In this document: piece by piece, positions 9,590 through 36,787 of the stretch | How positions within the stretch are numbered: the first letter of the stretch is position 1 | Layout: every line of letters begins with the position of its first letter | Assembly: GCA_947591055.1 (NCBI GenBank) | Contig: CANQCW010000004.1 | Span: 1 to 42,889, forward strand | DNA from: an uncultured Clostridia bacterium | Lineage (GTDB): Bacteria; Bacillota; Clostridia; TANB77; CAG-508 | Reading direction: 5' to 3' | Length of the DNA: 42,889 bases | The notes under the pieces: model-generated | Database searches by the model: none | Told to the model about the DNA's origin: nothing | The model's input: only the letters and a program-made list of their open reading frames with translations | Translations under genes and position numbers: made by a program

Positions 9590-10081
9590 TTAATTATTTT
9601 TATTATTGTACTCTTTAAATTTTTCTTCTAACAACGAAAAATTACAACATCTTTCTAAGATGTTTTTTGATAAATGTCCTTTTCTATACATATTTTGAAA
9701 TAAATTTATTTTTTTGAATAATTCAGCTTTATGATTATTTAAGAAAGTAAGTTGTCCTTCTAACAGCTTCTTATATTTTTTATCTTTTATAGTAGGTAAT
9801 ACTTCTGTTAATTCTTCAATTGGTGTTGGTATCATATTATTAATATTAACTACTCCTAATTCTCCTTCCTTAATTTTAAATATGTCAAATGATTTAGGAT
9901 TTATTTTAATATGTTTCGGTTTTGGTGAAGCTAATGGAGCAAAATAATTATAGTTGTTATATGTATAAACAATACCTATATATGGTCTTGTAGTATTTTT
10001 ATTATATGCAACATTAGAATCAAACTTTCTTAAATAGTTTATATAATTTTCACTTATATAATATATTTTTAAATTTTTCAT
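9590..10081 (-). CDS. toxN: Type III TA toxin, ToxN/AbiQ family endoribonuclease
   Basis: Y.I...YI.YLR.FD, RPYIGIV, YFAPLASPK, LGVVNINNMIP motifs; preceded by terminator and 36-bp repeats. Confidence 0.92.
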   Translation of the reverse strand: MKNLKIYYISENYINYLRKFDSNVAYNKNTTRPYIGIVYTYNNYNYFAPLASPKPKHIKINPKSFDIFKIKEGELGVVNINNMIPTPIEELTEVLPTIKDKKYKKLLEGQLTFLNNHKAELFKKINLFQNMYRKGHLSKNILERCCNFSLLEEKFKEYNNKNN

Positions 10082-10124: not shown

Positions 10125-10134
10125 CTGTTTTCAT

Positions 10135-10231
10135 TTCCTACTTTGGCAAGGATATTCCTACTTTTTTAAGTTCCTACTTTGGCAAGGATATTCCTACTTT
10201 TTTAATTCCCTACTTTAGCAAGGGTATTCTA
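10135..10231 (-). ncRNA. toxI: ToxI-like antitoxin repeat array, about 2.7 x 36 bp
   Basis: TTCCTACTTTGGCAAGGATATTCCTACTTTTTTAAK at 10135 and 10171, partial unit at 10207; promoter TTGACA(10303)-18-TATAAT(10279). Confidence 0.88.
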
Positions 10232-10359
10232 TCTTTTTTATTGATATATTTCTATATCAATATTATTATATATATTATAATATTTTTTTATTCCAATTGT
10301 CAATGTTTTCATAAATTTAAGTTTCATTTTTTGCAGAAATGGGAAGCAATTAGTCAATT

Positions 10360-15093: not shown

Positions 15094-16719
15094 TTATTTT
15101 CCTCCATCATATTTTTCAAACATATCATATTTATTTAAATTAATAACTATGTAATCATTAAACTCAACAATATTTTTCTTCTCATCATCATTAAGATTTT
15201 CATATTCAAAGTAAGCATTTGCAACTTGCTTTTCAGTAGGATACTTAAAACTAAAACCAAAATAATTAACAAACTTAATAGCTTCCTCTTGAGGTTTTTC
15301 AAAAGCATGTATTCCCCACCAAATTATAGATATACTATTTTCTCTGTGAATACGTCCATATTTTTGCTGGACTTTTGTTGGATTTTCTATGTAAAAAACA
15401 ATAGGTTTATTTTGATAATCATGCCCATTTAATATTTCATAACCAATGCTATTTGCCATCAATTTTTCTCGTTCATATCTTCTGTAATCATTGTAAAAAT
15501 AGTTGTTCAAAGATTTTGTTTGATATAATATCAATAAAATAGCACATATATTAATAACATATTTCAAATTTTTCTTTGTGCAAAAATAATTATAAATGTA
15601 AGCAGATAAAAATGCTGTCGTAATAATTAAAGAAAATAATATTCTGTTTAAAAGAGATAATTGAATTATCGTCAAGAAAAAATTTGAAAATATTATTCCT
15701 AAAAAAGATAATGTTCTTGAAATATTACTTGTTTTTAATAAATGAATAAGTTCCATAATCAATGTAATAAAAAATAGTGTAGTAAAAATAGTTGTTGGAA
15801 AATATTTATTCAAATCACTTATTATCTGATTAAAAAACTTATCTAAAATAATACTCTTCTCTGCCCAAGAACCACTTATAAATTCTTTGCTAAATAATTT
15901 AACTCCAATGGCAGAATAATTTCCAACTAATAAACCATTTTGTTTTAAAATAAAATGAATTAGTGAATTAATTAAGTAATGAATAATTACCCCTATAGCC
16001 AAAATTCCAATATTAAAAAAGAAATATTTAGCTAAGCTTTTATTTTTATCTTCATCAGAAATTGTTTTCAAAAACATAGATAAAAATAAAAATACTAAAA
16101 ATGTTTGTGAGCAAGATTCATAAGTTGAAATAGCAAAAGATAATGCAATTCCGGTAAAACAAAAAAGCTTAAATTTGTTAGTCTGTTTGTTAAAATAATA
16201 TTCATATATAAATATTCCTACAAGAATACTAATAAAATTGCATACTGTAACAGATAAGCAACTTACTTGATAAGTAAAAAAATTGTTAATTATGGGATTA
16301 GAAATAAGTATGCAAGAAAAAATAGTATAAACCCAATCAGACTTTATAATCTTTGAAAAATTTTTTCTAATAAATAAACAAATAGCAAAAGCAATAATAG
16401 CAATCAATATAGCAGTAATACAATCAGTCCAAAAAGGAGTAAACTCTTTAATGTTTAAAATGTTGTAAATAATCCACATGCCATATCTGTTTTGAGAAAG
16501 CCAGTACATACCACCATTTAAATATCTGTCAAAAGAAATGTCATCTATTCCCATAGCTTCATGAGTAATAGTATAACCAAAACTTAAAATAAAAGTAATA
16601 ATCACAGGAATAATATATTTCTTGCTTTTAAAAAAGTATAAAATTTGATCTTTATAATTGTTAATCATTTTCAATAAATCCTCTTTCCCCTTAAATAAAA
16701 AATTACTCTTTAATAGCAA
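15094..16719 (-). CDS. GtrII-like membrane glucosyltransferase
   Basis: IDD..WLSQNRYG after the first TM, many TMs, soluble C-terminal domain; start may be the internal MINNY. Confidence 0.7.
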   Translation of the reverse strand: MLLKSNFLFKGKEDLLKMINNYKDQILYFFKSKKYIIPVIITFILSFGYTITHEAMGIDDISFDRYLNGGMYWLSQNRYGMWIIYNILNIKEFTPFWTDCITAILIAIIAFAICLFIRKNFSKIIKSDWVYTIFSCILISNPIINNFFTYQVSCLSVTVCNFISILVGIFIYEYYFNKQTNKFKLFCFTGIALSFAISTYESCSQTFLVFLFLSMFLKTISDEDKNKSLAKYFFFNIGILAIGVIIHYLINSLIHFILKQNGLLVGNYSAIGVKLFSKEFISGSWAEKSIILDKFFNQIISDLNKYFPTTIFTTLFFITLIMELIHLLKTSNISRTLSFLGIIFSNFFLTIIQLSLLNRILFSLIITTAFLSAYIYNYFCTKKNLKYVINICAILLILYQTKSLNNYFYNDYRRYEREKLMANSIGYEILNGHDYQNKPIVFYIENPTKVQQKYGRIHRENSISIIWWGIHAFEKPQEEAIKFVNYFGFSFKYPTEKQVANAYFEYENLNDDEKKNIVEFNDYIVINLNKYDMFEKYDGGK

Positions 16720-16957
16720 CCATTAATTCATTATCTTGAACTTTTCTTGTAGAGCCTAAATACGAATAATCATCTCCTGTAAAATAAACTTTGTAATTCG
16801 TATTTTCAAGCCTGTTTTTGCTAAGTTCCAAAAACTTGCTTATCTCATCTTCTGTAAGATTATATGTAACTCTAAGCTCAAAAAAAGAAAAAACTAAAAA
16901 ATTGTCATCTTTTTCCTGCTTTTTATCAATAATATTACCAACAAAATTAACATCCAT
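16703..16957 (-). CDS. Hypothetical protein, first gene of the leftward operon
   Basis: GGAGTGA RBS; promoter TTGACG(17030)-17-TATAAT(17007). Confidence 0.75.
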   Translation of the reverse strand: MDVNFVGNIIDKKQEKDDNFLVFSFFELRVTYNLTEDEISKFLELSKNRLENTNYKVYFTGDDYSYLGSTRKVQDNELMVAIKE

Positions 16958-17062
16958 TATATATCACTCCAAAAAGTTATAAATAAAAATCTATTTTGAA
17001 AATTATATATTTTTTAACAATATTCGTCAAGGTAGAAATCAAATAAAAAGCTTAAATAAAAA

Positions 17063-17260
17063 CGCCCCTATCTCCCGGCAAAGCCGGGTATGAAATAAGG
17101 CGCCTAAAAGGCTATAAAAAAAGAAAAACAAAAAAATCATATGCACCCCCGCACAGTAAAAAATCTAAAAAAATTATTCCGGCGTAGCCGGATTATCTAA
17201 AAGGTTACTTTAATTACTTGTGATCCACGGCGGTCTCACAAGATTCTTAGTTAAAGCCGT
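17063..17260. promoter_or_regulatory. GC-rich structured leader or operator region upstream of the surface-protein operon
   Basis: CCCGGC-AAA-GCCGGG (17074-17088), TCCGGC-GTA-GCCGGA (17178-17192), CTTGTGA..TCACAAG stem (~17217-17242). Confidence 0.45.
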
Positions 17261-17354
17261 TCAAAATTTTTAGAAAATAGTTTATTTTTCTATTTTTCTA
17301 TTTTATTTTATATATTTTGTGCTTTTTTGCACTTATTTTAGGAGGTTTTTTATT

Positions 17355-18020
17355 ATGAAAAAAATTACTATTTTATCTATCGTTATCGCTTTAGTTTTAG
17401 CTTGCGCTTTCGGTATTTCTGTTAATGCCGCTGACAATGCTTCTTTTAAGGCTGGCGATACTGTTGTTGTTGAATTTGATTTAAAGGGAACTATGCAAAA
17501 TGGTGATTACAAAGTAACATACAACGACGATGTTTTAACTTTTAAAAGTATTACTCCATGCGCTGACGGTGCTGCTTATACTAAAAATGCAGGCGAAGTT
17601 GTCGCTAGTTTCTTTACACCAGCTCAAAAAGTAGTTGTTACTTTTACAGCTAAAGCTGATTCTACTGTTGAAGCAGCTAACGTTACTTTAGTTCCTAAAC
17701 TTTTCACAAATACTGAAGGTGAAGATGTAAATGTTCAAGCAGGTTCACCTGTTGTAACTGTTACACCTGCAGCTATTGAAGAAAATGTTGTTGAAAACGA
17801 AGTTATAAATGAAGTACCTGCAAATGAAGTTGAAAATGAAGTTTCAAACGAGGTTGCAAATGAAGTTTCAAACGAAGTTTCAACACCTGCTACTTCTAAC
17901 ACTGTTAATAATGATGATGACAAAACTACTTACGATCAAACTGGTGCTAACATAGCTATCGTTGCTGTTGTTGCTCTTGCTGTTGTTCTTGGTTCTGCTA
18001 TCGTTATTAAAAGAAAATAA
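17355..18020 (+). CDS. Cell-wall anchor: signal peptide, cohesin-like domain, NEV-repeat linker, sortase-type signal (YDQTG + TM + KRK)
   Basis: AGGAGG RBS before ATG 17355. AGDTVVVEF..G.YKVTYNDDVLTF resembles a cohesin N-terminus. C-terminal sorting-signal architecture. Confidence 0.75.
   Translation: MKKITILSIVIALVLACAFGISVNAADNASFKAGDTVVVEFDLKGTMQNGDYKVTYNDDVLTFKSITPCADGAAYTKNAGEVVASFFTPAQKVVVTFTAKADSTVEAANVTLVPKLFTNTEGEDVNVQAGSPVVTVTPAAIEENVVENEVINEVPANEVENEVSNEVANEVSNEVSTPATSNTVNNDDDKTTYDQTGANIAIVAVVALAVVLGSAIVIKRK
17793..17883 (+). repeat. Coding ~12-bp tandem repeat (x-N-E-V), about 7 units
   Basis: ENEVINEVPANEVENEVSNEVANEVSNEVS. Confidence 0.8.
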
Positions 18021-18116
18021 TTTACTTTTTTAGTTTACTAATACTTATTTTAGAATGAAAATTATTTAAAAATTTATATTAAAAAAATAAAAAATAAAAA
18101 TATTTAAAAGATTATT

Positions 18117-18143
18117 TTAAGTGTATTAAAAAAATACACTTAA
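18117..18143 (+). promoter_or_regulatory. Intergenic stem-loop without U-tract
   Basis: TTAAGTGTATT-AAAAA-AATACACTTAA, about 15 bp before the RBS of 18172. Confidence 0.5.
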
Positions 18144-18171
18144 GTATATAAAATTTAAGGAGGAATAAAAA

Positions 18172-20115
18172 GTGAAGAAAAAGACTTTATTATTAACTAC
18201 ACTTGCTGGTTCTATGCTTATTGCTGGAATGGCAATGCCTACTACAAAGGCTGTTACTGATACTACAGCTATTGTTAATGAAGATAAAGAGATCGTTGCT
18301 GTTGAATTAGCTAACTCTGAAACTCAACTTTCTAAAGAACAATTAAAAACATTAATTGCCAAAGCTTATGAAGGCAAAAATTTAAAACCAGAAATTACTG
18401 TAGAAGGAGATGTTAAAACTGGTTCTACTGTAAAAGTTGGTGAAAACAAAACACTTACAGTTGTTGTTTACGGTGATGTTAATGGTGATGGTGCTGTTAA
18501 CTCAAAAGACGCTGTAGCTATTGCTAAACACTCAACAGGAGCAGAAACTCTTGAAGGTGCAGCTCTAATAGCTGCTGGTTTAGATAACAACACAGATAAT
18601 ATCAACTCTAAAGACGCTGTAAAAGTTGCTAAATTTTCAACAGGAGCACTTGAAGAATCTTTAGTTAAATCTGGTGTTAAAATTGAAGAAAAAATTAATC
18701 CAGAACAAGAAGTTCAGGAACACAAATGCACATACACACAAGGAGTATATGATAATATAGCAAAATCACATACATGGAAATGTACAGAATGTGGTGAATC
18801 TGGAGTAGAACCTTGTACATTTAGTGAATGGACATCAACAGATGGCAAAACTGCAAAAAGAACATGTCTATTATGTGGTGGTGTAGATACAGCAACCACA
18901 TTATCAGCTGCGTTAAGTGATGGAAGTACTAAAGAACTTACTGTAGATACAATAGATACTTCTGAAAATGAATTAACTATACCAAGAGGAACAACTGTAA
19001 CTGTAAATGAAGAAATAACAACAGCTAGTAATGATGTAACAGTAAATGGTACATTAGTTTTAAAAACAAAACAAGAAAATCTTAAATTAAAAGGTACAGG
19101 AACTGTTATCTATGCACCAGAAGTAGAAACACCAGAAGAATTTGCAGAACAATTTCCAAATGCCGAAGGTATATTAGGAGGAATACAAGCTGCAGATAAA
19201 GAAGCTGCAAAAGGCTTAAAATATGAAATAATAGTACCAAGCCTAAGTGAGGTACAAACAATAACAGAAGATACTCAAATAGAATTAGAAGCAGGATGGA
19301 ATTTAACAGTAGATTTAGGAAACAACATATTAACATCTAAAAACACAAATAATAACTTAATAAAAAATAGCGGAAATCTTACAATAAAAAATGGAACCTT
19401 GACAACTGCTGAGAAAAATAATAATCCTGTAATTAATGATCAAGGAAGTAGACTAACTTTAGAAAATGTTGATGTTAAAGGTAATAAAGGTATAAGAACA
19501 AATGGAAACTTAGGAGTTATTGGTGGAAAAATTGTATCAAAGAGTTATGATAATAATTCATATGCATTGGCAGTATTAACTGATGCAGAAACTCGTAGTA
19601 CTGCTGTGTTAAATAATGTAGATATTGTTGCACGAAACATCGGAGCATATATTGGAGGAGCTAATCATAGCTTAATTATGTACGGTGGAACGATAACCAC
19701 AAAAGGCTCAGAGAACAAAGATTATGCTTTAGCATCATACGCTACAGATGCAATTTTGAGCTTAGAAGGTACAAAAATACAATCTGACGACTTTGGTGTT
19801 TATTTACAAAATGGAGCAGAATCGGGTAAACCAGGTGATGTAGGAAACTTAGCTGAACTAAACAATGTCGAATTAACATCGGAAAAAGCAAGCATATGGG
19901 TAGCAGGTCAAAAAGATAGAGTAGAAGTTACAGGTGGTACAATAACAAGTAATGAAGAAGTAGTACTAAGAATATCTAGTAAAGACTGTGGACATAGCAT
20001 ATTAAAGGACTGTACTTTATCTGGTCACCCAACTGTGACATTTAATAGTAACATAACAGAGGAACAAAAGAATCAACTTGTTACTTTGACTGATGTAACA
20101 GAAAACAAAAAATAA
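18172..20115 (+). CDS. Expressed variable surface protein: constant region (signal peptide + dockerin, aa 1-~181) fused to a 470-aa variable cassette
   Basis: AGGAGG RBS and signal peptide. Duplicated GDVNGDGAVNSKDA / GLDNNTDNINSKDA dockerin repeats. Crossover motif at aa 178-181 (EQEV), then Cys/His pairs and beta-helix-like repeats. Confidence 0.88.
   Translation: MKKKTLLLTTLAGSMLIAGMAMPTTKAVTDTTAIVNEDKEIVAVELANSETQLSKEQLKTLIAKAYEGKNLKPEITVEGDVKTGSTVKVGENKTLTVVVYGDVNGDGAVNSKDAVAIAKHSTGAETLEGAALIAAGLDNNTDNINSKDAVKVAKFSTGALEESLVKSGVKIEEKINPEQEVQEHKCTYTQGVYDNIAKSHTWKCTECGESGVEPCTFSEWTSTDGKTAKRTCLLCGGVDTATTLSAALSDGSTKELTVDTIDTSENELTIPRGTTVTVNEEITTASNDVTVNGTLVLKTKQENLKLKGTGTVIYAPEVETPEEFAEQFPNAEGILGGIQAADKEAAKGLKYEIIVPSLSEVQTITEDTQIELEAGWNLTVDLGNNILTSKNTNNNLIKNSGNLTIKNGTLTTAEKNNNPVINDQGSRLTLENVDVKGNKGIRTNGNLGVIGGKIVSKSYDNNSYALAVLTDAETRSTAVLNNVDIVARNIGAYIGGANHSLIMYGGTITTKGSENKDYALASYATDAILSLEGTKIQSDDFGVYLQNGAESGKPGDVGNLAELNNVELTSEKASIWVAGQKDRVEVTGGTITSNEEVVLRISSKDCGHSILKDCTLSGHPTVTFNSNITEEQKNQLVTLTDVTENKK
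18702..18715 (+). repeat. Putative recombination site X (expression site)
   Basis: AGAACAAGAAGTTC, in frame as E-Q-E-V. Confidence 0.85.
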
Positions 20116-20175
20116 AAATTAATAATAAGTATTAGTGAACTTAATTGGATAATTAAAATTTATTCATTAAGAAAA

Positions 20176-20210
20176 CAAAAATATCGTACAAAAACTGTAC
20201 GATATTTTTG
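20176..20210. terminator. Bidirectional terminator between expressed cassette and cassette A
   Basis: CAAAAATATCGTACA-AAAAC-TGTACGATATTTTTG. Confidence 0.85.
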
Positions 20211-20247
20211 TATTTGATAACTTTTTAATAAACTATATAATCAAATT

Positions 20248-23200
20248 TTATTTGCTTATATCTTCAACTTTTATTGTTAGGTAATTTATCTCATTTGTTT
20301 CTTTATTTTTGAATCCAATTGTCATCTCTGGTAATTCAGCTTCCCACCAAATTAAAATTTCTGTATCTTTTAAATCAAGTGATGAACTTGCAGTTACATC
20401 ATCCTCTGTAACTTGGTAGCCAGAAACAGGACCATCTGTATAAAGTTTGTCTCTTGAAATTCCTGTATCAACAATTAAAGCAAAATATGTTCTATCATTT
20501 TTAGAAGCATTATCTTCTGAAGTATATGCTTTAGTTTTAGTCTTATCAATTTTTACCGTTATAGTGTTTGTTTTTGGATCTACTTCTACAGAATTTATAG
20601 CATCCATATTTTTAGCAAATTCAGTATTATGATCGTCTTCTTTCATTATTTCTTTATTAAGTGCTTCTTTCACTTCGCTAGTTTCTTCAACGCTTAATGT
20701 TTCAGATTTTTGATTTAAAGTAACAATTGATTTTTTATTTAGAGTAAACTCAATTTCGTCTGAGTTAGTTTTAACACTATAAGAAGCTTCATTAGCTACA
20801 GAAGGTACTAGATAATATCCAAACCAATCAAGAAGTTTTGGAGTACTTGTTAATTTTTCACCAACAACAGTATTTCCTGTATAAGTTTTGTCAGTTATCA
20901 AAGTAACAGTATATTTATCACTCATACTTGTGTCACCAACTACAAGGCTTTTGAATACTGCTTTAGATATATCAACTTTACCAGATTTTACTTCTAAGCC
21001 AGTAATTTCTTGAGCATTAGTAAATACTCTTACAGCATTAGATTTATTAGCTGAGATTTCTAATCCATCTTGATTTGTTCCAACAAATTCAACATCAATT
21101 TGTTTTTCAACTTTAGATGAATCAATTGATAATTTATTGTTAGAACCAGTAAATGTAAATTTATCACCTTCTACTATAAATGGATTTATTTTTGATTCTT
21201 GTTTTATTTTCACTCCATTGATAGTAGTTGTTGTTCCAGTAGTAACTTCTACATTAACTGGGCTTGATGTATCTAAAGTTAAATCCATATTATCTTTACT
21301 GATGATTACTTTTTCAACTGATAATTCAGATAAATCAAATTTTTTTGCAGTATCTACTGTAATTTCGTTTAATTCACCAGTTACAGTTGTTGTATAATTA
21401 GCTTCACCAGTTATATTGACTTTTGCAGTTTTTGCAACTTTTGTTAAATCATATGTTGTATCTTTCTTATCATCATCTGTTAATGTTAAAGCTGTTATTT
21501 TATCATTTACTGATATTTTGTCATTATTGTCCATTTGATCTAAAACACTTATTATATTTAATACTTCTGGATAAATATCAGAAGAATATTCAGTCATTTT
21601 TTCACCTACATATAATGTGTTATCTTTATATGTAACTTGATTTGCCCCAAGTTTTGGTAAAACTGGAGAATCTTTTTCCACTTTTACATATGTGGCATTA
21701 GTAAATGCAAGTGCTGAAATTGGTGTTGTAACTTTAGCTTCATTAGAATAATATTTTGAACCATTAACTTCAGTTACAATCATAAATTTATATTCTTTTC
21801 CTGGATTTAAATTTTCTGCTACATTATATGGTAATGATGTAATTGCAGTACTATCCTCCACATAATCTTTATCTGATTCCACATAGTATAATTTATAATT
21901 TACTAAACTTGCTCTATTTTTACTTAAAATATCAAATAAATTATTAGAATCTAATAAAGTTCCTTTTAATTGTACTTTTCCATCTTCAAGTACTGCTCTT
22001 AAATCTTCAATTCTTGCTCCTTGATAATATTTCAAATTAGCTTGTTTGTCGCTACTACCACTAGCTTTCTTTATTTCATCTGAAGATTTATTTGCCATTA
22101 AAACGTCATCTTTAGCATTTGCAGTTACTTTAAATGAATATGTTCCTGCACCATATTTTTCTACTATAGATGATATATCAAAATTTGAAGTTTCAGTAGT
22201 TGTTGCTGATGATACAACATTATTATATTCTTTGTTTGTCTTAGTTGAATCATATTTTAAAATTTCAACTGTATAATCTTTTACTTTTGCTACATCTCCT
22301 GTAGGTGTCCATGATATTTTCTTTTCATTTTTGTCTAAAGTAATTGTTATTCCAGTAAGTACTGGTGATGTTGTTATTGTAACGCCTGTAGAAGAAACAT
22401 CAGTATAATCTTCGTTATCTGCAACTGCTATAACTGTCATATTGAAAGTTCCAGCATCTTGTTCCTTTAATATATCAAAGAAATCAACTTCTTTAGTTTC
22501 TCCTTTATTTACAACTGTTTCATAAACTATTTTATTAGTACTGTCTTTTAATATAACTCTATATTCAACAAATCCTTCAGTTTCTTCATTAAAATCCCAT
22601 TTATATGTAGCTTCTTTACTTGTCTCTTTTTCTACAGTTACTTTGCCTTCCATTGCATTAGCACCTTTTTTAGCAACCTTAATAGCTACAACATCTTTAG
22701 AATCTGTTCCAGAAGCAGTTTTTGCTGCTAAATATACAACACAAGCATCGTCACCTATATCAGTTGGAATAGGAATACTTGTAGTTTCATTAAAACTATT
22801 AATTTTGCTTGTATTACTTGCTGAATTACCAATTATATCAGCAACAGTTGGAGCAGGTTCTCCTACTTTCTTAACTAAGTAATATACTGTATCATTAGTA
22901 TTGGTTGATTTTAAATTTGTAATACTAGCTTGTGGCTTTTTCTTCTTATCAGCAGTACGATTAGCTTTTTCATATGTTACAACTGGAGCGTTTGCATATT
23001 TAGTTGCCGCTGTACCATTAGCTACTGTTGAAACATTACCTTCACTATCTCTTACTAATGCTTTAAGAGTTAATGTTCCTTCTTCTAATGAGCTTAAATC
23101 ACCACTAATTGTTTCATTAATATTTTTTGTTGTTAATTCTTTTGTCAAAGTTAAAGTATTTGGTTCGTCAGCAGAATCTGTAATATTAACTTCAAGAATT

Positions 23201-23592
23201 ACTGGAAGAATATTTGTATTTCCACCATTGAAAGTTACATCCATATTAACATTTTTAACATTTGAGGAATTAATTTCATTATCATTATTTCCAGATCCAG
23301 CTACAACTTTAAGTGAAGTAGGAGCAACTAATTTTTTAAATACAAAAGTTTTAGATTCTTCAAAAGAATTACTTTCATCAGTTATAAGTAATACATTTTC
23401 TTTATTTTCTTTTAGCTGTGAAATGCCATTAATTTTATAAATATTTTTATTAGATGAATCTTGAGTACCATCTACTAGAATATCATTTAATTTAAATCTA
23501 ATATCTTGTACTTCTTTATTTAATTTTACTGAGATATTTCCGCTAGCTTCAACTTCAAAAGAAACAATTTCAACATCTAGAACTTCTTGGTC
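20248..23592 (-). CDS. Silent cassette A (1114 aa from DQEV), Ig/FN3-like beta-rich surface protein C-terminus
   Basis: Frame runs through the site (DQEVLD). Only 7 codons upstream, no RBS or signal peptide. FN3-like W / Y.V patterns. Confidence 0.85.
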   Translation of the reverse strand, partial: DQEVLDVEIVSFEVEASGNISVKLNKEVQDIRFKLNDILVDGTQDSSNKNIYKINGISQLKENKENVLLITDESNSFEESKTFVFKKLVAPTSLKVVAGSGNNDNEINSSNVKNVNMDVTFNGGNTNILPVILEVNITDSADEPNTLTLTKELTTKNINETISGDLSSLEEGTLTLKALVRDSEGNVSTVANGTAATKYANAPVVTYEKANRTADKKKKPQASITNLKSTNTNDTVYYLVKKVGEPAPTVADIIGNSASNTSKINSFNETTSIPIPTDIGDDACVVYLAAKTASGTDSKDVVAIKVAKKGANAMEGKVTVEKETSKEATYKWDFNEETEGFVEYRVILKDSTNKIVYETVVNKGETKEVDFFDILKEQDAGTFNMTVIAVADNEDYTDVSSTGVTITTSPVLTGITITLDKNEKKISWTPTGDVAKVKDYTVEILKYDSTKTNKEYNNVVSSATTTETSNFDISSIVEKYGAGTYSFKVTANAKDDVLMANKSSDEIKKASGSSDKQANLKYYQGARIEDLRAVLEDGKVQLKGTLLDSNNLFDILSKNRASLVNYKLYYVESDKDYVEDSTAITSLPYNVAENLNPGKEYKFMIVTEVNGSKYYSNEAKVTTPISALAFTNATYVKVEKDSPVLPKLGANQVTYKDNTLYVGEKMTEYSSDIYPEVLNIISVLDQMDNNDKISVNDKITALTLTDDDKKDTTYDLTKVAKTAKVNITGEANYTTTVTGELNEITVDTAKKFDLSELSVEKVIISKDNMDLTLDTSSPVNVEVTTGTTTTINGVKIKQESKINPFIVEGDKFTFTGSNNKLSIDSSKVEKQIDVEFVGTNQDGLEISANKSNAVRVFTNAQEITGLEVKSGKVDISKAVFKSLVVGDTSMSDKYTVTLITDKTYTGNTVVGEKLTSTPKLLDWFGYYLVPSVANEASYSVKTNSDEIEFTLNKKSIVTLNQKSETLSVEETSEVKEALNKEIMKEDDHNTEFAKNMDAINSVEVDPKTNTITVKIDKTKTKAYTSEDNASKNDRTYFALIVDTGISRDKLYTDGPVSGYQVTEDDVTASSSLDLKDTEILIWWEAELPEMTIGFKNKETNEINYLTIKVEDISK

Positions 23593-23624
23593 TAGCAAAA
23601 ACGTTGAAAGCATTGAAAATACTG
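23580..23624 (-). repeat. Putative recombination site A with extended 44-bp arm
   Basis: CAGTATTTTCAATGCTTTCAACGTTTTTGCTAGACCAAGAAGTT(C). Confidence 0.88.
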
Positions 23625-23791
23625 AAAAATTGCAATTAATAAAATTAAAAGAAGAATTTAAGTGAAATAAAACTAAAGATGGGAATAAAGTAAATTCTAT
23701 CTTGTTAAAATATATAGATATGAAAATAAAAAGCTGTAAATCTGCACGTTACAGTATCTACAGCACTAGCAATACAATGTTTAAATGTTAA

Positions 23792-25127
23792 TTATTTTTC
23801 CTTTAAATATCTTTTTAAAAGGAAAGTTAAAAAATATGGGAAAGTATAAAATTTGCCATTAAAACCTATATTTTTATATCCTAGCTTTATTCCATACTTA
23901 ATATCTTTATACATTTTATTGTCTATTAAATTATTTAGAGAAATAGTCGCACCATCAATCGCTTTTACTTCAACTGGAATCAAAGAATCTTTATCTCTAA
24001 TAAAAAAGTCCATTTCAATAGTACCCTTTTCATTTTTATAGAAATATAAGTTATAGCCCTCTTTTACAAGAGTATCTGCAACAATATTTTCATAAATGGC
24101 ACCTTTATAAGTATTAAAATTTTTATTATTTCTTAAATCATCTTGTGCTTCTTCATCTAGTGAACCAATTAATAAACCTGTATCACTAAAATATATTCTA
24201 TAATTATTAGGATTAAAATTTCCTCCAAGAGGAAGTTCTGGTTGTTCTAAACAGTAACAAATATTAATAATTCCACTATCTTTCAGCCAATCTATTGTTC
24301 CAATATATTCTCTGCTTCTTGCACCATGTTCTATCTTTGAAATTTGAAACTTTTTGTTTTCATTTCCTAAAAATACAGGAATTCTACGATACACATTAAG
24401 GACTTTAGCATGATCCAAGCCGACCAGCGTACTTAGTTATATCCTCTTCATAATCAAGAAGAATTTGCTTTTGCATTTTTAATGTTCCACTATAATTTTT
24501 ATTTTTTACAAATGAATTAACAATTGCAGGCATTCCACCTATTACCATATATTCTTTAAAATTATCAAACATAACAGAAAGCTCTACATCAGAAAAAGGA
24601 ATTAAGTTTTTCATATGATTATATAGATTTTCTATTTGCTCTTCTTTATATCCTTTAGCCCAAAGAAATTCTTCAAAGTCCATTGAATACATTTCATAGT
24701 CTTCTTTATTTCCAACGCTATTAGATTCAATTTCTTTATAGTTAATTCCCATAAGAGAACCTGAACAGATTACATCATATCTTCCATCTTGATTAAATGA
24801 TTTAAGAGATGTTGCACAATTAATACAATTTTGTAACTCGTCAAAAAATATTAATGTATTTCCTGGTATAAATTCAAAATTTGGATTTTTTAAAGAGATA
24901 TTTTTAATTATAGTATCTACATCAAAACCATCATCAAAAATATCCCTATATTGCTTTTGCAGTACAAAGTTTATTTCAATTACACTTTTATAATTATTTT
25001 TTGCAAAATATCTAATTGATTCTGTTTTTCCTATTTGACGTGCTCCTTTTACTATCAAAGGCTTTTTCTGTTGACTATTTTTCCATTCTATTAAATAATT
25101 ATCAATTTTTCTTTTTAAAAGTTCCAC
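23792..25127 (-). pseudogene. AAA_14 + DUF4143-type ATPase split by a +1 frameshift near 24422
   Basis: GARQIGKT Walker A and FFDELQ in the 5' ORF; DTGLL, ENIV, EMDF, PVEVK in the 3' ORF. Removing one C gives KYAGGLDHAKV. Confidence 0.8.
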
Positions 25128-25414
25128 AATTTTTCACCATCCTATATATATATTATATCACAAAATTCCTGCTATATGCAATACATTTTTTCACAAAATT
25201 CCATTTCTATATATGTTTTTCACTTTTTGCAATTTACTGCCAAAAGTATTGTTTTATATTGCAAACTTCTTTTAAAAAAACACTGAAAGTATTGAAAATA
25301 CTAGATAATGCGTGATAAATATATTAATTTTTATAAAAAAATAATTAAATAAATAGCACATTTTTGCTTTTTATATTATAATTAAATTATATTTAAAATC
25401 ATGGAGGTAGTGTT

Positions 25415-25777
25415 ATGCCTAGTAAACTAAAAAAAATTTTAGATGAATATACTGAAGGTTTATCTAATATTCTAGACAATAAAATAGAAAAAGTAATTTT
25501 ATATGGTTCTTATGCTCGAGGAGAGCAAAGTTCTAAAGAAGAAATTAGCGATATTGATATAATGATACTAGTAAAGTCTAATTCTAGTGAGATTAAAGAT
25601 ATAGAAAAAATAGTATTAGATTATAGTTATAATCTAGATTTAAAATATAATATTGTATTATCTCCTATGGTAGAAAATATTGATGTTTTTAATAAAAGAA
25701 CTAAATATATGTCTTTTTATAAAAATGTAATGAATGAGGGAGTTATATTATCTAAAGGAATATGTAAAGGAAAGTGA
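25415..25777 (+). CDS. Minimal nucleotidyltransferase (MNT), no HEPN partner; 3' end runs into an inverted mazF fragment
   Basis: LYGSYARG..SDIDIMIL; GGAGGT RBS. Confidence 0.85.
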   Translation: MPSKLKKILDEYTEGLSNILDNKIEKVILYGSYARGEQSSKEEISDIDIMILVKSNSSEIKDIEKIVLDYSYNLDLKYNIVLSPMVENIDVFNKRTKYMSFYKNVMNEGVILSKGICKGK

Positions 25778-25862
25778 TTATCTGTATTTGTAATAGGACA
25801 AACAATTGATAAATTTGTTTTTTCATTAAATATATTATTGCTTATTACAACAGCTAATCTAT
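25741..25862 (-). pseudogene. mazF: Internal fragment of a MazF/PemK toxin gene
   Basis: Translates YRLAVVISNNIFNEKTNLSIVCPITNTDNHFPLHIPLDNIT (MazF R.AVVISN...VCPIT core); no start codon; abuts site M. Confidence 0.8.
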
Positions 25863-25906
25863 AACTTCTTGGTCTAGCAAAAACGTTGAAAACCTTGAAA
25901 ATAGTG
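25862..25906 (-). repeat. Putative recombination site M (null cassette)
   Basis: 41/44 identical to site A; cassette frame reads DQEVID-stop. Confidence 0.85.
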
Positions 25907-26036
25907 AATAAATCATAAATTATTTGTTATAATATAAATAAAACATTTATATTATCTGTATCAATAATTTTATTGACATTGTAAATAAATTATGGTAAAA
26001 TACATATAATAAAAGAAAGAAAGGAAGTGTGTTATT

Positions 26037-26303
26037 ATGGCTCAAACAAATATTAATATAAGAATGGATGAAGATTTAAAAAAACAATTTGATAAATTTT
26101 GCTCTGATATAGGTATGACAATGACAACAGCTATTTGTGTATTTGCAAAAAAAGCTGTTAGAGAACAAAAAATACCTTTTGAGATTACAGCTGAAGACCC
26201 TTTTTATAGTTCTGCCAATATGAAAAGGTTACAAAAAGCAATTCAAGATGTAGAAGATGGAAAACTTACAGTTCATGATTTAATAGAGGTAGAAGATGAA
26301 TAA
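26037..26303 (+). CDS. relB: RelB/DinJ family antitoxin
   Basis: INIRMDEDLK..IGMTMTTA..REQKIPF; promoter TTGACA(25973)-17-TAAAAT. Confidence 0.9.
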   Translation: MAQTNINIRMDEDLKKQFDKFCSDIGMTMTTAICVFAKKAVREQKIPFEITAEDPFYSSANMKRLQKAIQDVEDGKLTVHDLIEVEDE

Positions 26304-26559
26304 AGCATGGCAAGATGAAGCGTGGGAAGATTATTTGTATTGGCAGACTCAAGATAAAAAAATACTAAAAAAAATAAACCAGTTATTAAAAGATATAGAT
26401 AGAAATGCTTATGATGGAATAGGAAAGCCAGAAGCATTATCTGGAAATCTTTCTGGATACTGGAGTAGAAAAATTGATGATAAAAATAGAATTGTATATA
26501 AAGTACAAAATAATCAAATTATAATTATTCAATGTGGTTCACATTATAGAGATAAATAA
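26296..26559 (+). CDS. yoeB: Txe/YoeB family toxin
   Basis: AWEDYLYWQ, GIGKPEAL, WSRKI..RIVY, HY; overlaps the antitoxin stop. Confidence 0.92.
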   Translation: MNKAWQDEAWEDYLYWQTQDKKILKKINQLLKDIDRNAYDGIGKPEALSGNLSGYWSRKIDDKNRIVYKVQNNQIIIIQCGSHYRDK

Positions 26560-26651
26560 AATTGTAATTGCTAATCATATAATAATACTAAAAATATAAT
26601 AATAAATATTGACATTTATACTATGTATATACAATGAGAGGAGTTATTTAT

Positions 26652-26891
26652 ATGACTACTACTATTCAAAAATGGGGAAAAAGCCAAGGTGTTAGAATTC
26701 CTAAAAATATATTAGATTCTGTTAATTGGACAGAATCGGAACAGATTACAATTGTAGTTGAAAATGGTAAAATAATTATGGAAAAAACAAAATTAAAAAG
26801 AAAAAATATAAAAGAATTATTTGAAAATTATGATGGAAAATATGAACCAGTAAAAATAGATTGGGGAAATCCGAAAGGGAAAGAAATATGA
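26652..26891 (+). CDS. mazE: AbrB/MazE family antitoxin
   Basis: IQKWGKSQGVRIPK, DWG.PKGKE; GAGGAG RBS. Confidence 0.88.
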   Translation: MTTTIQKWGKSQGVRIPKNILDSVNWTESEQITIVVENGKIIMEKTKLKRKNIKELFENYDGKYEPVKIDWGNPKGKEI

Positions 26892-27009
26892 TGCGAACAT
26901 ATTAAAGCATTAGAATTAAATAGTAGAACTTACCAAATATAGAACATTTGCCAGAAGATAATTGGCACAAGTTATAGACATTATTTATTCTGAAATAGAA
27001 AAAATATAA
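26892..27009 (+). pseudogene. mazF: Degraded C-terminal third of mazF, two frameshifts
   Basis: CEHIKALELNSRTYQ / IEHLPED / LAQVIDIIYSEIEKI* in shifting frames directly after mazE. Confidence 0.75.
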
Positions 27010-27116
27010 TTAATTAACAAAGAAAATTTAGATTTAAATATAATTTTTTATTCCTGATAATAAAATTCTCTTAAGCAATACATTAATTTGTACTTACTTA
27101 AGAGATTCATTTAATT

Positions 27117-27458
27117 TTATATATTTATAACAACTCCCTCTTTTTGAACATTAGTATAAAATGGTACAATATTAACTCTTGCATTATACTTATCAATATT
27201 TTTAATTAGTGGAGATATTTCAATTTCAAAATTATTTTCACTTTCAATATCATAAGCTATATCATATATTTTATCTTTATATTGTTCTAATTCTTTTTCA
27301 TTCAAATCAGTTAAAATCATTATATCAATATCAGATGATTTATTAAAATCTCCTCGTGCATATGAACCGTATAATATTATTTTTCTTAATCTATCTCCTA
27401 ATATAACTTTTACTTTGTAAATAAAATTTTGAATAATATTTTGTATTTCTATAGGCAT
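27117..27458 (-). CDS. Minimal nucleotidyltransferase (MNT), no HEPN partner seen
   Basis: LYGSYARGD..SDIDIMIL; AGGAGG RBS. Confidence 0.88.
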   Translation of the reverse strand: MPIEIQNIIQNFIYKVKVILGDRLRKIILYGSYARGDFNKSSDIDIMILTDLNEKELEQYKDKIYDIAYDIESENNFEIEISPLIKNIDKYNARVNIVPFYTNVQKEGVVINI

Positions 27459-27519
27459 AAGTATTTCCTCCTTGCATTTATATTAAATCACAAAAGAAAA
27501 AAATTCAATAATTTTAATA

Positions 27520-27597
27520 ATTTTAGTCGACACTTTTTAATGAATTTAATCAACACTTTTTAAAAATTTTAGTCGACATTTTTTTATATTTTTAGTA
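27520..27597. repeat. 23-bp-period imperfect direct repeats (TTTTAGTCGACAC-like), 3 units plus a partial
   Basis: GTCGAC at 27526 and 27572, ATCAAC at 27549, TTTTAGT ending at 27596. Confidence 0.6.
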
Positions 27598-27638
27598 AAA
27601 ATTTTTAGATCTTTTATGATATATTTATTGAAATCATC

Positions 27639-27683
27639 CAGTGTTTTCAATACTTTCAACAATTTTTCTAGACCAAGAAGTTC
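27639..27683 (+). repeat. Putative recombination site B with extended arm
   Basis: 39/44 identical to site A; core AGACCAAGAAGTTC at 27670-27683. Confidence 0.88.
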
Positions 27684-30670
27684 CAGCGTTAGAAAAAGCC
27701 ATAGAAGATGCTTTAAAACAACTTGAAAAATATGATAACTTTATGAATTGTGATGATAATAAAGGTAGTTACGGAACAGAGATCGGATATTTAGAAACTG
27801 CTCAAGAAGATATAGAAAATGCAGAAACAGAAGAAGATGTAGCAGAAGCTCTTGATACCTTCTTATCTCAAATGGAAAAAGTAGATGAAGCAATTGCAGC
27901 ATTAGAAGAGAAAAAAGATGCAGCAATTGAAGATTTACAAGCTTATGCAGATGCATTAAATGATGTAAAAGGAATGAGCGCAGAAGACAAATCAAAAGTT
28001 AAAACTTTTGTAAAACAAGCTCAAGAAGCAGTAAAAGCCGCAAACTCTAACGAAGAAATAGAGGCAGCTACAGATACTTTTAATGAATTAATGGCAAGTT
28101 TTGAAGAAGTAAAAACTGCTAAAGAAAAGGCTGAAACACTTGCAGCATTAAATGATTATTTAGCAGAAGCAGAACCAGGAATGAAAAACGTTATAGAAAA
28201 AGCAATTGATGAAGTAAATAAAGCAACAACTGCTGAAGAAGTAAAAAATGCAGTTAACGGTCTTTTAGATGAAAAAACAGGAAAATTACCAACTCTAAAA
28301 GAAGCACAAAAAGCAGCATATGAAACACTATCAGCATATGAAGATTATTTAGCAAAAAATACAGTGGACGGAGAAAATTTAATTCTTGGAGAAATAGAAA
28401 CTGTAAAAGCAGCAATAGCTAATGCAGAAGATAAGTCTAATGTAGAAACAGCTATGGATGGATTTGATAATTTTATGGATGATTATGAAGACACAGTTAC
28501 TGCTGTTGAATTAGAAGTAGCAAAGAATGCATTAGACAATATGTATAAAGAAGTTACAGCAAAACTAAGTCCTTATGTATCAAGCACAGATAAAAATGTT
28601 AAAGATTTAGCAGATGCTGCAGTAAAATTATTTGATGAAATTAGAAAAGCCGGAGCCGAATCTGAAGAAAAAGATGATGTGGTGGAAGCAACTAATAGAA
28701 TAAAAGATTTATTCTATGGTAAAGGAAATCATGGATTACCAGCAGTAAATGAAGATAACTATGTTGTAGAATCAAATCTTAAAAGTTATTATAGTGAATC
28801 TAATATAGTAACTAACTTCTTAGGATATGAAAATGCATTAAAACACAATGCAGCAAAAACTGAAAAAGATGATAAAGCAGATAAATTAGGACGTGCAGAA
28901 GCATATAAATCAGCAATGGAAAAATTAGACTTATATACAACAGTAATAAATGACAATGATGCAGTTGAAGCATTAAAGTTAACAGAACAAAATGTAGCAA
29001 GTATCAAAGAAATGATAAGTTCAACAAAAACATCAGTAGAAAAAGCAGAAGGCAAAACTGCTGTAGATGATGCCAAAGCTATATTAGATAAATATTTAAA
29101 CAACTATTATGCAGAATTTGTAGAATATGCAGAAAACTATGAATTCGAAAGTACAAAAACAAGTGCTTTAAAAGAATTAGAAGCTTACAAAGAGCAATAT
29201 AAAGATGTTACTGAAGATGATACAATTTATGCACCAGTGAAAGATGCAGTAGATGATGCAATTACAGCTATTGAAGCATTAGAAGCTGACATAAATGAAG
29301 TTAGTGAAATAACAGAAGAATTAGAAACTGTAAAAGATGCAATTAAATTAGCAAACAAACAAGCAGAATTAAAATTAGCAGTAGATACAGCAGTAGCAAA
29401 ATATACACCACTATTAAAATCTGAAAGTGAAGAAGTAAAACAAGCAGCTGCAGCAGCAATAAAAGAACTTAGTGCTTTAAAATATAATGGATCAATTAAA
29501 AACACACCAAAAGACGTAGCTAAAATAGAAGAAAAATATGATCCTCAACTTAAAGAAGCACTAAAAGCTCAAGAAGAAAAAGATAAAAAAGAACGTGATG
29601 AAGCATTAGAACCAATAATGGATAAAGTTGACGAACTTATTGAAATAGCAACAGCAGGAAAGAGAACAGAAATAGTAAATCAATTAAATAATTTTAAATC
29701 AGAACTTAATAAAACAAAAACAGCTGAAGAAGTAAGAACAGTAAGTGGCCAATTAAATTCTTATATAAATGATTCATGTCAAATAGTAAGTGCTCAATAT
29801 GATGCGATATATAAAACATCAGTTGGATTATTAGACAAGTATAAAGAAATCTGTGGAAAAGATGAAGAAGCAAAAGCAATAGTAGACAAAGCAATAGCAG
29901 ATATCAAAGCAATAACAGAAACAGATATTGCAAGAGCACAAGCAGCAATTAATGCAATAGTTGGTGTAGGTGTATCTGACGAAAAAGAAACAGTTGCAAA
30001 GAAAATTGCTAAAATACAAGGTGAAATAACTAACTTAGACACTGAAAAAGAGAACGCTGTAAGAACTATTAATAATAAAATTGATGAATATCCAGAAGAT
30101 AAAGCAGCATTAAAGAATATAGTACAAGAATATATAGATGCAATAAATGCTGTAACAAGAAAAGGCAAAAATTATGAAACTACAATAAACAATATAGTAA
30201 CAGAAGCTGAAGCTGCAATACAAGATTATCTTGATGTTAAAATTTCTAATGAAGCAGAAAAAAATCTTAATATAAAAAGTGTTAAAAATGAAATAGGAGA
30301 ATCAACTACTTTTTTTGAATCTGGAAAAAAGGTTTCAGATTTACAAGAAAGTGTTAAAATAGTAGATGGAAAAGTTTCAGGAAAATTAAAAGAAGTAACC
30401 GATTTTACACAGTTTGGTGCTCCTGAAGGAGAAAACCATTTCTTAGCTTTAAAATTTGATAAAGGTTCTGCAGAAAGAGTTGAAATTCAATTAGTTAATG
30501 GTGATGAATCTAAGACTATCGGAGATTTAGATACTGACGGAATTGTAATAATAAGTTTTAAAGAAGAACAACAACTAACCACTAACAAAATGAAAGTAAA
30601 TTTTTATAATGAATCAAATGAATTAGTTAAAACTTTAACACTTGACTTATCAGGATTAAAGTTTGCTTAA
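27671..30670 (+). CDS. Silent cassette B (999 aa), alpha-helical bundle repeats (GA/DUF1542-like) with a beta C-terminal domain
   Basis: Begins DQEVPA. Upstream GTG 27641 lies inside the repeat and lacks an RBS and signal peptide. Ala/Glu/Lys-rich repeats. Confidence 0.85.
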   Translation, partial: DQEVPALEKAIEDALKQLEKYDNFMNCDDNKGSYGTEIGYLETAQEDIENAETEEDVAEALDTFLSQMEKVDEAIAALEEKKDAAIEDLQAYADALNDVKGMSAEDKSKVKTFVKQAQEAVKAANSNEEIEAATDTFNELMASFEEVKTAKEKAETLAALNDYLAEAEPGMKNVIEKAIDEVNKATTAEEVKNAVNGLLDEKTGKLPTLKEAQKAAYETLSAYEDYLAKNTVDGENLILGEIETVKAAIANAEDKSNVETAMDGFDNFMDDYEDTVTAVELEVAKNALDNMYKEVTAKLSPYVSSTDKNVKDLADAAVKLFDEIRKAGAESEEKDDVVEATNRIKDLFYGKGNHGLPAVNEDNYVVESNLKSYYSESNIVTNFLGYENALKHNAAKTEKDDKADKLGRAEAYKSAMEKLDLYTTVINDNDAVEALKLTEQNVASIKEMISSTKTSVEKAEGKTAVDDAKAILDKYLNNYYAEFVEYAENYEFESTKTSALKELEAYKEQYKDVTEDDTIYAPVKDAVDDAITAIEALEADINEVSEITEELETVKDAIKLANKQAELKLAVDTAVAKYTPLLKSESEEVKQAAAAAIKELSALKYNGSIKNTPKDVAKIEEKYDPQLKEALKAQEEKDKKERDEALEPIMDKVDELIEIATAGKRTEIVNQLNNFKSELNKTKTAEEVRTVSGQLNSYINDSCQIVSAQYDAIYKTSVGLLDKYKEICGKDEEAKAIVDKAIADIKAITETDIARAQAAINAIVGVGVSDEKETVAKKIAKIQGEITNLDTEKENAVRTINNKIDEYPEDKAALKNIVQEYIDAINAVTRKGKNYETTINNIVTEAEAAIQDYLDVKISNEAEKNLNIKSVKNEIGESTTFFESGKKVSDLQESVKIVDGKVSGKLKEVTDFTQFGAPEGENHFLALKFDKGSAERVEIQLVNGDESKTIGDLDTDGIVIISFKEEQQLTTNKMKVNFYNESNELVKTLTLDLSGLKFA

Positions 30671-30690
30671 ATTGAATTTGCAATATAAAT

Positions 30691-30726
30691 AAAAAATACA
30701 CGAGGTATAATACTCGTGTATTTTTT
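30691..30726. terminator. Bidirectional terminator between cassettes B and C
   Basis: AAAAAATACACGAG-8nt-CTCGTGTATTTTTT. Confidence 0.85.
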
Positions 30727-30742
30727 GCGTAAAGTCATTTAA

Positions 30743-33799: not shown

Positions 33800-33800
33800 T
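33787..33800 (-). repeat. Putative recombination site C
   Basis: AGACCAAGAAGTTC(AGGATT). Confidence 0.88.
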
Positions 33801-33981
33801 CATTTAAAAAAACAAAATGTCAATTTTTATTAATATATCAACAAAAGTTAACAATTATTTGAAAGATATTATTAAAAAATAGTAGGAATAATATAAGAAA
33901 TATTGTATATAATATATAAATATATTATCTTGACAATATATTTACAAAATGATAAAATAATAATGAAGAGAGGTGATATTT

Positions 33982-34245
33982 ATGGCTCAAACTTTAATTA
34001 ACTTTAGAATTGATGAAAATATAAAAAAAGAAATGGAACAACTTTGCAATGAGTTAGGTATAACAATGACAACAGCCTTCAATATTTTTGCTAAAAAAAT
34101 GATACGTGAAAAAAGAATTCCCTTTGATGTGTCTATTGATTCATTTTATTTAGAAAATAATATAAAATACTTAGAGCAAGTAATAGCTGATATCGAATCT
34201 GGAAAATCAAAATTAGAAGAGCACAAATTAATTGAGGAGGATTAA
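33982..34245 (+). CDS. relB: RelB/DinJ family antitoxin (second copy)
   Basis: INFRIDENIK..LGITMTTAF..REKRIPF; promoter TTGACA(33930)-17-TAAAAT. Confidence 0.9.
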   Translation: MAQTLINFRIDENIKKEMEQLCNELGITMTTAFNIFAKKMIREKRIPFDVSIDSFYLENNIKYLEQVIADIESGKSKLEEHKLIEED

Positions 34246-34246
34246 T

Positions 34247-34504: not shown

Positions 34505-34729
34505 TATTAAATTATATAAACAGTTGCATAAATTTTTAAAGAAACTTCTGCAACTGTTTTAATTTCTTCTTATAGCAAATGTTAATTTTTTTGTTATTTC
34601 AAACAAAACTGGCATTTATATTATAATCATATTAATCTAATCATAAAATCATATTAAAAGTATATTCAAAATCATGTCACATTCTTTCGAGAATCGATTA
34701 TGAGACATTTTATTGTGTTAATAGTATAA

Positions 34730-36773: not shown

Positions 36774-36787
36774 AGACCAAGAAGTTC
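36774..36787 (+). repeat. Putative recombination site D
   Basis: AGACCAAGAAGTTC(AGGACC); in-frame TAA three codons upstream. Confidence 0.88.

Follow-up and report, generated by a model that had tools for sequence, protein, structure and literature searches.

The 42,889-nt stretch analysed here (the window; contig CANQCW010000004.1 of assembly GCA_947591055.1, from an uncultured Clostridia bacterium) carries seven copies of a 14-base sequence, AGAMCAAGAAGTTM, which are very probably the crossover sites of a multiple-inversion system, or shufflon, that varies the C-terminal 470–1114 residues of one secreted surface protein. The window is the whole of contig C4 of an assembly (G000) of 1,245,234 bases in 100 contigs, rated 69% complete, and a run search returned sequencing runs with this contig labelled as rabbit gut metagenome. 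All seven copies of the 14-mer in the 1.25-Mb assembly lie inside 24 kb of the window, as do all seven copies of the 13-mer GAMCAAGAAGTTM, and in every other genome of the genus the 14-mer was found no more than twice (43 genomes examined).

The proposed system would work from a single promoter-proximal gene part (positions 18172–18701) that ends in site X, with six silent right halves sharing the site and its reading frame. A site-specific recombinase would pair X with a site in the opposite orientation and invert the intervening DNA, fusing another cassette onto the constant part. A tyrosine recombinase of the type found as integrases of phages and integrative and conjugative elements is the most likely enzyme; it would be orthologous to a 379-amino-acid (379-aa) protein of relatives and encoded off the contig, and strand exchange would take place within CAAGAAGTTC. 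A breadth-first walk over inversions between opposite sites yielded 2304 arrangements, with every right half reaching X in one or two steps.

Seven sites sharing one reading frame

The seven core starts are at 18706 (+), 23583 (−), 25865 (−), 27674 (+), 33790 (−), 36778 (+) and 42693 (−), giving three sites on the plus strand and four on the minus strand of one locus. In common orientation their consensus is A-GA-[A/C]-CAAGAAG-TT-[C/A]. The window has 16 copies of the bare 7-mer CAAGAAG where 6.3 would be expected (2.5-fold), a count reached in 0/100 shuffles. An initial annotation of this DNA had described tyrosine recombinase sites with dyad arms around an invariant 7-bp core, and the two examples that it quoted are present, CCAGAA-CAAGAAG-TTCAGG at X (18700–18718, +) and CTAGAC-CAAGAAG-TTCTAG at site A (23583, −). 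The core CAAGAAG, the candidate overlap region for strand exchange, is identical in 7/7 sites as described, with invariance that proved wider than 7 bp and extends from A(−7) to G(+9), the positions fixed in 7/7 sites being A(−7) G A. CAAGAAG T T.. R G(+9). The dyad arms stood up less well. A hybrid of the X left arm and the 33790 right arm is indeed complementary at 9/10 positions, but the arms are weak and this value is the maximum of 49 left by right pairings of 10-nt arms, for which the mean is 4.8/10. The outer seven arm positions are complementary at a mean of 2.65/7 against approximately 0.30 per position by chance, and regular complementarity about the central G is seen only at ±3, ±5 and ±6 (±8 in 5/7 sites and ±9 in 4/7); the dyad-arm argument itself hardly exceeds chance. 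Variation in the arms might, as the annotation suggested, tune how often each cassette switches.

All seven sites are read in a single frame, GAM CAA GAA GTT, encoding (E/D)QEV, and this is also the frame of the gene starting at 18172. The probability of the CAA GAA GTT spelling of QEV in 7/7 sites is approximately 0.001 under the cassettes' own codon usage, and this fixation at synonymous positions indicates a constraint on the DNA rather than on the peptide. Among the site-bearing frames the only complete gene is that at 18172–20115. Its constant 5′ part (18172–18701, +) encodes a signal peptide and a dockerin-type module in 177 codons before the GAM codon at 18703, with residues 100–153 matching type I dockerin (Dockerin_1, PF00404) at 24.1 bits against a cut-off of 22.9. 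Expression site X, AGAACAAGAAGTTC (18702–18715, +), lies approximately 178 codons into the gene behind a left flank ending in TTAATCCA. The cassette now in the expression site (18716–20115, +) is open for 470 codons from the GAM codon and shares 43% identity with the C-terminal part of another protein, P0253. A promoter scan, with 137 hits where 134 would be expected, carried no information.

The open frames behind sites X, 23583, 25865, 27674, 33790, 36778 and 42693 measure 470, 1114, 6, 999, 1018, 975 and 941 codons, respectively, in DNA of approximately 28% G+C. Five of the silent frames are therefore 941–1114 codons long, all without a start, and one is a 6-codon null. At three silent sites an in-frame stop lies 1–3 codons upstream and otherwise a short leader is found, with no signal peptide upstream of any silent site. 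Silent cassette A (20248–23579, −; 1114 codons open from the site) is entered from site A (23580–23593), which together with a conserved silent left arm of approximately 30–45 nt occupies 23580–23641 (−; repeat families D6 and I1). At the null site, AGACCAAGAAGTTA (25862–25875, −), the frame stops after DQEVID and the flanks match those of site A at 91% identity (family D6); fusion of the constant part to this site would yield a 183-residue dockerin-only product, an OFF state. A further conserved left arm with its site (27622–27683, +, the site at 27670–27683; repeat family I1) leads into cassette 27674 (27684–30670, +; 999 codons open from the site), which has no Pfam match. Cassette 33790 (30743–33786, −; 1018 codons open from the site) begins at site AGACCAAGAAGTTC (33787–33800, −), directly upstream of which is an in-frame TGA codon. 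The site search also placed AGACCAAGAAGTTC at 36774–36787 (+), ahead of cassette 36778 (36788–39702, +; 975 codons open from the site; 29% identical to cassette 33790), and the last site of the contig, AGAACAAGAAGTTC, at 42690–42703 (−), ahead of the fn3-containing cassette 42693 (39877–42689, −; 941 codons open from the site). The cassettes are arranged in convergent pairs with shared strong hairpins, a hairpin scan detecting a terminator-like hairpin of 17 pairs at 20175–20211 and another of 14 pairs at 30691–30726, and site orientation therefore alternates.

Relatives of the silent cassettes are found as expressed fusions elsewhere, with the change of sequence at the site. Two proteins, P0241 and P0242, were obtained from a search for longer proteins bearing the constant part, and their N-termini are 72% and 60% identical to it, respectively. 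P0241 has the junction INPEQEV, and the rest of the protein shares 47% identity with silent cassette 33790 over 1001 residues. P0242 has the junction IEPEQEV, and the rest of it aligns with silent cassette A over 907 residues at 38% identity, beginning EQEV/DQEV. An exhaustive representative search added P0253, with a relative of the window's currently expressed cassette, and P0252 and P0272, with A-type cassettes. In a sister lineage, contig C96 of genome G004 joins a constant part to one cassette and protein P0244 joins the same constant part (98% identical) to a second cassette (98%), indicating that both fusion states exist in nature for that lineage. Searches of a genome-contig collection with the last cassette of the window returned nothing new, and an N-terminal alignment returned only two known loci there and nothing new from a metagenome-contig collection.

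Some related loci are organized differently. On G004:C96 (L039, 492–557 and 6500–6565) inverted copies include the constant coding part, with at least 66 nt of perfect identity up to the contig end, and on G382:C74 (L060) the N-terminal part is duplicated. Either these loci follow another design, built on long inverted repeats, or both states were assembled together; when G004 was searched for more sites by means of its own junction, the count was not enriched relative to the control. A 30-kb cluster on G364:C4 (45700–77100; L057 and L058) contains no fewer than five complete pairs, in which a small anchored protein is accompanied by one of 1100–1150 residues, with their own signal peptides and in both orientations, and appears to be a gene-family version of these proteins without cassette sharing. 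Many cassettes of different types share a C-terminal tag, ...(I/V)(E/Q)GLK, just before the stop codon (in the window at 30743 and 39877; also in L039 and P0241).

The long frames are strongly diverged, but cassettes 33790, 36778 and 42693 are paralogues (25–29% identical to one another; the rest are unrelated) and two site pairs share 73–74 nt at 80–81% identity (I1 and I2). This similarity favours RecA-dependent homologous recombination or gene conversion between paralogues as the source of variation, with the 14-mer serving only as a conserved linker. Such a process is extremely improbable here, however, as X and any silent site are identical over only 13–18 nt, on the 5′ side, which is too short for efficient RecA pairing, and there is no shared 3′ homology block of the kind that provides extended homology on both sides in pilE/pilS and vlsE-type systems. 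The fixed synonymous positions of the site also argue against it, and the alternating site orientation suits inversion, as expected of a shufflon.

Candidate recombinase and point of exchange

To find relatives of the locus, cassette 33790 was searched across 401 genomes of the order, followed by site-pattern searches. Clusters of the identical 13-mer were found in three genomes of the sister genus, with eight copies in G359, eight in G631 (on two locus contigs) and six in G345; apart from these and the window's genome, none of the 401 genomes contained more than three site copies. G631 has one extra lone CAAGATG copy on contig C6, off its locus contigs. The layout in all three genomes matches that of the window, with a sortase gene, a small anchored protein, the site-bearing expressed gene and alternating convergent cassette pairs, and their spacers contain HEPN/nucleotidyltransferase, AbiE-like and AAA_14/DUF4143 genes.

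In each of these genomes a gene encoding the 379-aa protein ends 127–129 nt from a terminal site: G359:C29 (L083) 16408–17544 with a site at 17673, G631:C3 55783–56919 with a site at 57048, and G345:C15 14324–15460 (−) with a site at 14185. The three copies are 94–98% identical and the protein matches PF00589 at 114.6 bits (cut-off 27.1) and the SAM-like N-terminal domain PF14659. Putative catalytic motifs of the expected Arg, His-x-x-Arg and Tyr kind (GMRQGE, HDLRHT, GHSS and EIY) were read by eye, no NCBIfam cut-off was reached, and the closest proteins of solved structure are chains 6en0, 6emy and 6emz, named 'Int protein', which we take to be the Tn1549 integrase. Upstream of the G359 gene, at 16060–16200 of L083, are repeated units of the form ...AACTTTTCACTT(G/A)AC...TAAATTTAG, which are possibly operator or arm-type sites.

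Association of this gene with the site was assessed with one genome per species, using seven loci with orthologues at 79–100% identity and, as controls, 53 loci with homologues at most 33% identical. Five of the seven orthologue loci have a site of exact pattern 127–193 nt downstream, one has the variant GACCCAGAAGTTC 126 nt downstream, and in the remaining locus a site lies 467 nt upstream. A site copy within 4 kb was present in just 1/53 control loci. The initial proposal of a tyrosine recombinase is thereby supported through relatives, in which a site stands 126–193 nt downstream of the orthologue in 6/7 loci; the support comes from the gene context of relatives, not from the window's genome. 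Inversion in the window's organism, by a member of the same enzyme family, would be the parallel suggested by these sequences.

Natural variants of the site place bounds on the exchange point. In a table of 32 sites from six genomes, the left flank of the expression site ends ATCCA|GAAC in 4/4 genomes (the window, G359, G631 and G345). A different left arm of approximately 30 nt, TATTTTCAACRCTTTYAGCGTTTTTGCCA, precedes 16 silent sites from both genera (3/16 in the window) and is followed by GACC in 15/16. The base at −4 follows the left flank, being A in 4/4 expression sites and C behind 15/16 conserved silent left arms. Sequence from +7 onwards tracks the cassette type, whichever left arm precedes it; for example, TAGATGTTG... 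is found behind three kinds of left arm. In G345 the start of one cassette (60/61 nt identical) is found both behind the expression flank with GAAC (C2) and behind a silent arm with GACC (start of C15). As the −4 base stays with the left half and +7 with the right half, exchange is placed within CAAGAAGTTC. A crossover in the core, as first annotated, is supported by these bounds, which define 10 bp rather than 7.

The silent left arm is kept across the two genera, at 23594–23641, 25876–25911 and 27622–27669 in the window and in the G359, G631 and G345 loci. It has the form TATTTTCAAC-RCTTTYAGC-GTTTTTGCCA, in which three T-tract units are approximately 10 bp apart, and its in-frame reading is ...FSTLSAFLPDQEV.

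The core itself is concerted within genomes. It reads CAAGATG in 7/7 sites of G638 and 3/3 of G257, and CAAGAAG in 7/7 sites of the window's genome, in all sites on the locus contigs of G359 (8/8), G631 (8/8) and G345 (6/6), and in 3/3 sites each of G639 and G640; the sole exception seen is the lone copy on G631:C6. The overlap region of a tyrosine recombinase must match between partner sites and may differ between genomes. A core that is uniform per genome and variable between genomes is what would be predicted for an overlap region, and co-evolution of a recognition sequence would look alike.

Recombinase search and state of the locus in the window's genome

Pfam searches of 30 open reading frames (ORFs) of the window detected no recombinase family, and six-frame searches of the assembly gave four PF00589 matches (contigs C15, C23, C1 and C33) and two PF00239 matches (C84 and C95), none on the window's contig, in agreement with the earlier expectation that the recombinase lies outside the window. 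The accompanying suggestion, that PF00589 genes should co-occur with the locus, held in relatives, where such a gene is site-adjacent, and failed in the window's own assembly, where none is linked. The six-frame search gave no PF01548 match in the assembly for an IS110-type (Piv-like) invertase. A gene start, MVERK..., is cut by the contig end (42877–42889, +; 13 bases only) and its membership in the system is not shown. Joining this tail to the serine recombinase gene of C84 was rejected, as the closest homologue of that gene starts MNKEKK, and joining it to the integrase gene of C1 was rejected likewise, the closest homologue starting MAGSIEK. No contig overlaps the window tail, a search for the 26-nt tail in the metagenome-contig collection gave nothing new, and the 174-nt tail region had only short AT-rich BLAST matches in the genus.

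The two PF00239 matches are large serine recombinase genes. That on C84 (L005 1–1776), cut by the contig start, is 74–97% identical in very many related assemblies and, judged by that distribution, could be a lineage-wide enzyme, as an invertase of these sites might be. That a serine recombinase uses these sites, be it an invertase or a large serine enzyme working in trans, and crosses over at 2 bp within the conserved block, is nevertheless very improbable. Both genes are unlinked to the locus, the window's contig has no PF00239 match, and on the locus contigs of G359, G631 and G345 there are 0/15 PF00239 matches but 3/22 PF00589 matches, one per genome and all to the 379-aa gene. Serine invertase sites are cut with a 2-bp stagger centred between bases; the dyad axis of the present site falls on a base pair, and the resulting odd spacing misfits such a cut. 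Conservation over approximately 14–19 bp is also short of two 12-bp half-sites.

Several observations weigh against an active tyrosine recombinase-driven shufflon in this organism. A simple core-type site would be expected to show dyad symmetry, which is weak here. The complete PF00589 genes of the assembly (C15 and C23) are Xer-like and unlinked to the locus, and the assembly, 69% complete, has no orthologue of the 379-aa recombinase, for which tblastn gave at best an unrelated integrase on C1 (24% identical). In G004 the nearest homologue of this recombinase is 45% identical and stands beside tRNA genes like an island integrase. The null site at 25865, which alone among the 32 sites of the table has A at +6, resembles a partial copy of site A and may be a relic, perhaps dead. 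No strand-changing joint was found among 15 joints listed of 46 from contigs of four runs on 17900–37899, those listed having short sides (20–26 nt) and being apparently spurious. Some contig pieces do terminate at a site or close by (pieces of X2 meet at 33771–33800 and 36751–36780, piece 23 of X4 ceases to match at 36774 and piece 18 of X4 begins at 23580), and others cross sites. The window's contig was assembled straight through 7/7 sites, whereas contigs of relatives often end at sites, and the locus may therefore switch rarely or be locked in this population.

A fully locked locus, in which the recombinase was lost or never acquired, the seven sites are relics and only the 18172–20115 fusion is made, is unlikely. 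It would account for the unbroken contig, for the missing orthologue and for the lack of a strand-changing joint among those listed, and the chromosomal spot on G000:C25 that is syntenic with that of the sister genus's recombinase has no such gene. The assembly is just 69% complete, however, and contigs drop rare variants, so that contig joints cannot show absence. Moreover, five silent frames of 941–1114 codons are still open and 7/7 cores are identical, which argues for recent use.

Neighbouring genes and comparison with known systems

The two spacers of the window (23590–27669 and 33801–36773) are packed with toxin-antitoxin and abortive-infection genes, comprising RelB/YoeB twice, AbiEii and two nucleotidyltransferases, together with an 85-aa ORF (26634–26891). 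The first gene of spacer 1 is an AAA_14 and DUF4143 ATPase split into two overlapping frames (23792–25127, −), which is intact at 437–451 aa in G004:C123 and G359:C44. Further along spacer 1 is a second RelB/YoeB-like pair (26037–26559, +; direct repeats D1 and D3), 71–73% identical to the pair at 33973–34504, the Pfam search having covered the latter copy. Spacer 2 (33973–36436) contains RelB (33973–34245, +), YoeB (34232–34504, +), AbiEii (34730–35656, −) and a 250-aa ORF without Pfam match (35684–36436, −). HEPN/nucleotidyltransferase and AbiE-like genes also occupy the spacers of relatives. Outside the array, a ToxN gene (PF13958, E 7e-40; 9590–10081, −) has just upstream a 36-nt tandem repeat of 3.1 copies (10128–10240) resembling a ToxI antitoxin RNA array; a related second 36-nt array of 3.7 copies is at the contig start (1–134) and recurs at the end of contig C56.

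It is a tentative and rather doubtful suggestion that the silent left arm and the spacer toxin modules keep an integrase-type enzyme safe on an array that also has sites in direct orientation. The left arm could be an accessory or arm-type element tilting synapsis towards inversion, and the toxin-antitoxin and abortive-infection modules could act as addiction locks that kill cells excising a segment between direct sites, by analogy with superintegron cassette arrays, for which an addiction-lock role has been proposed.

Upstream of the variable gene, the product of 17355–18017 (+) is small and secreted and has a C-terminal (Y/F)(D/P)QTG motif, a hydrophobic stretch and an RK tail; it aligns with neighbours of homologous genes in G006 and G015. 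Proteins of this type always stand before the dockerin-bearing gene, and in relatives a sortase gene adjoins. A Gram_pos_anchor match was found in one of three members of the family (E 0.003), there was no Pfam match to cohesin in the family even at E 10, and sequence comparison gave no solved relative. As a guess, this conserved neighbour is a possible wall-bound docking partner of the variable gene product.

With such a locus, a small-genome uncultured Clostridia lineage of the rabbit gut gains a concrete and testable device for antigenic or adhesive variation, in which one constant, probably wall-docked module can bear any of six very different tails (approximately 1000 residues), or none. 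The site has been narrowed to 10 bp by natural variants and relatives indicate the likely enzyme, so that the system could be rebuilt as a reporter. The few shufflon enzymes that attract interest as DNA-shuffling tools would be joined by an integrase-type invertase with a compact site of 13–14 bp.

Gene-altering inversions have been catalogued in bulk by surveys, which describe inverted repeats swapping parts of coding sequences, often called shufflons (PMC9881135, PMC10028968). The main text of PMC9881135 contains neither 'dockerin' nor 'Clostridia', and a literature search that did not extend to the survey supplements found no link between a dockerin protein and a shufflon. One close likeness is to the R64/IncI shufflon (Rci, sfx and pilV), in which multiple inversions place alternative C-terminal segments behind a constant 5′ part, using seven crossover sites with a 7-bp core, one conserved flank and one variable flank, and a tyrosine recombinase encoded beside the array (PMC11852207); at the present locus that adjacency is seen in relatives only. 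The site sequence is, however, unrelated to that of R64, the silent cassettes are 941–1114 codons long rather than short pilin tips, and the conserved flank is the left arm of approximately 30 nt of silent sites in place of the 12-bp right arm of the R64 12-7-12 sfx site. In addition, the spacers here contain toxin-antitoxin genes, and the enzyme of relatives is of the integrase type with an N-terminal SAM-like/arm-type region, not of the Rci type with a C-terminal extension. With its integrase-type linked enzyme, long conserved left arm and different site sequence, the locus falls outside the Rci family. The surface-lipoprotein locus vsa of Mycoplasma pulmonis (HvsR) and that of M. agalactiae, vpma (Xer1), likewise combine one expression site, silent surface-protein genes and inversions by a locus-adjacent tyrosine recombinase, and Xer1 was found to be essential by knockout and complementation in the account of vpma in PMC2268961. 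The hosts are mycoplasmas rather than a Clostridia lineage, and vpma sites lie in the 5′ untranslated region so that the promoter is moved (PMC2268961), whereas the present site is inside the coding sequence and the constant anchoring module is retained. The switching principle is already well known, and the chief contribution of the present locus is to widen the range of that principle and to record a cassette set of unusual size.

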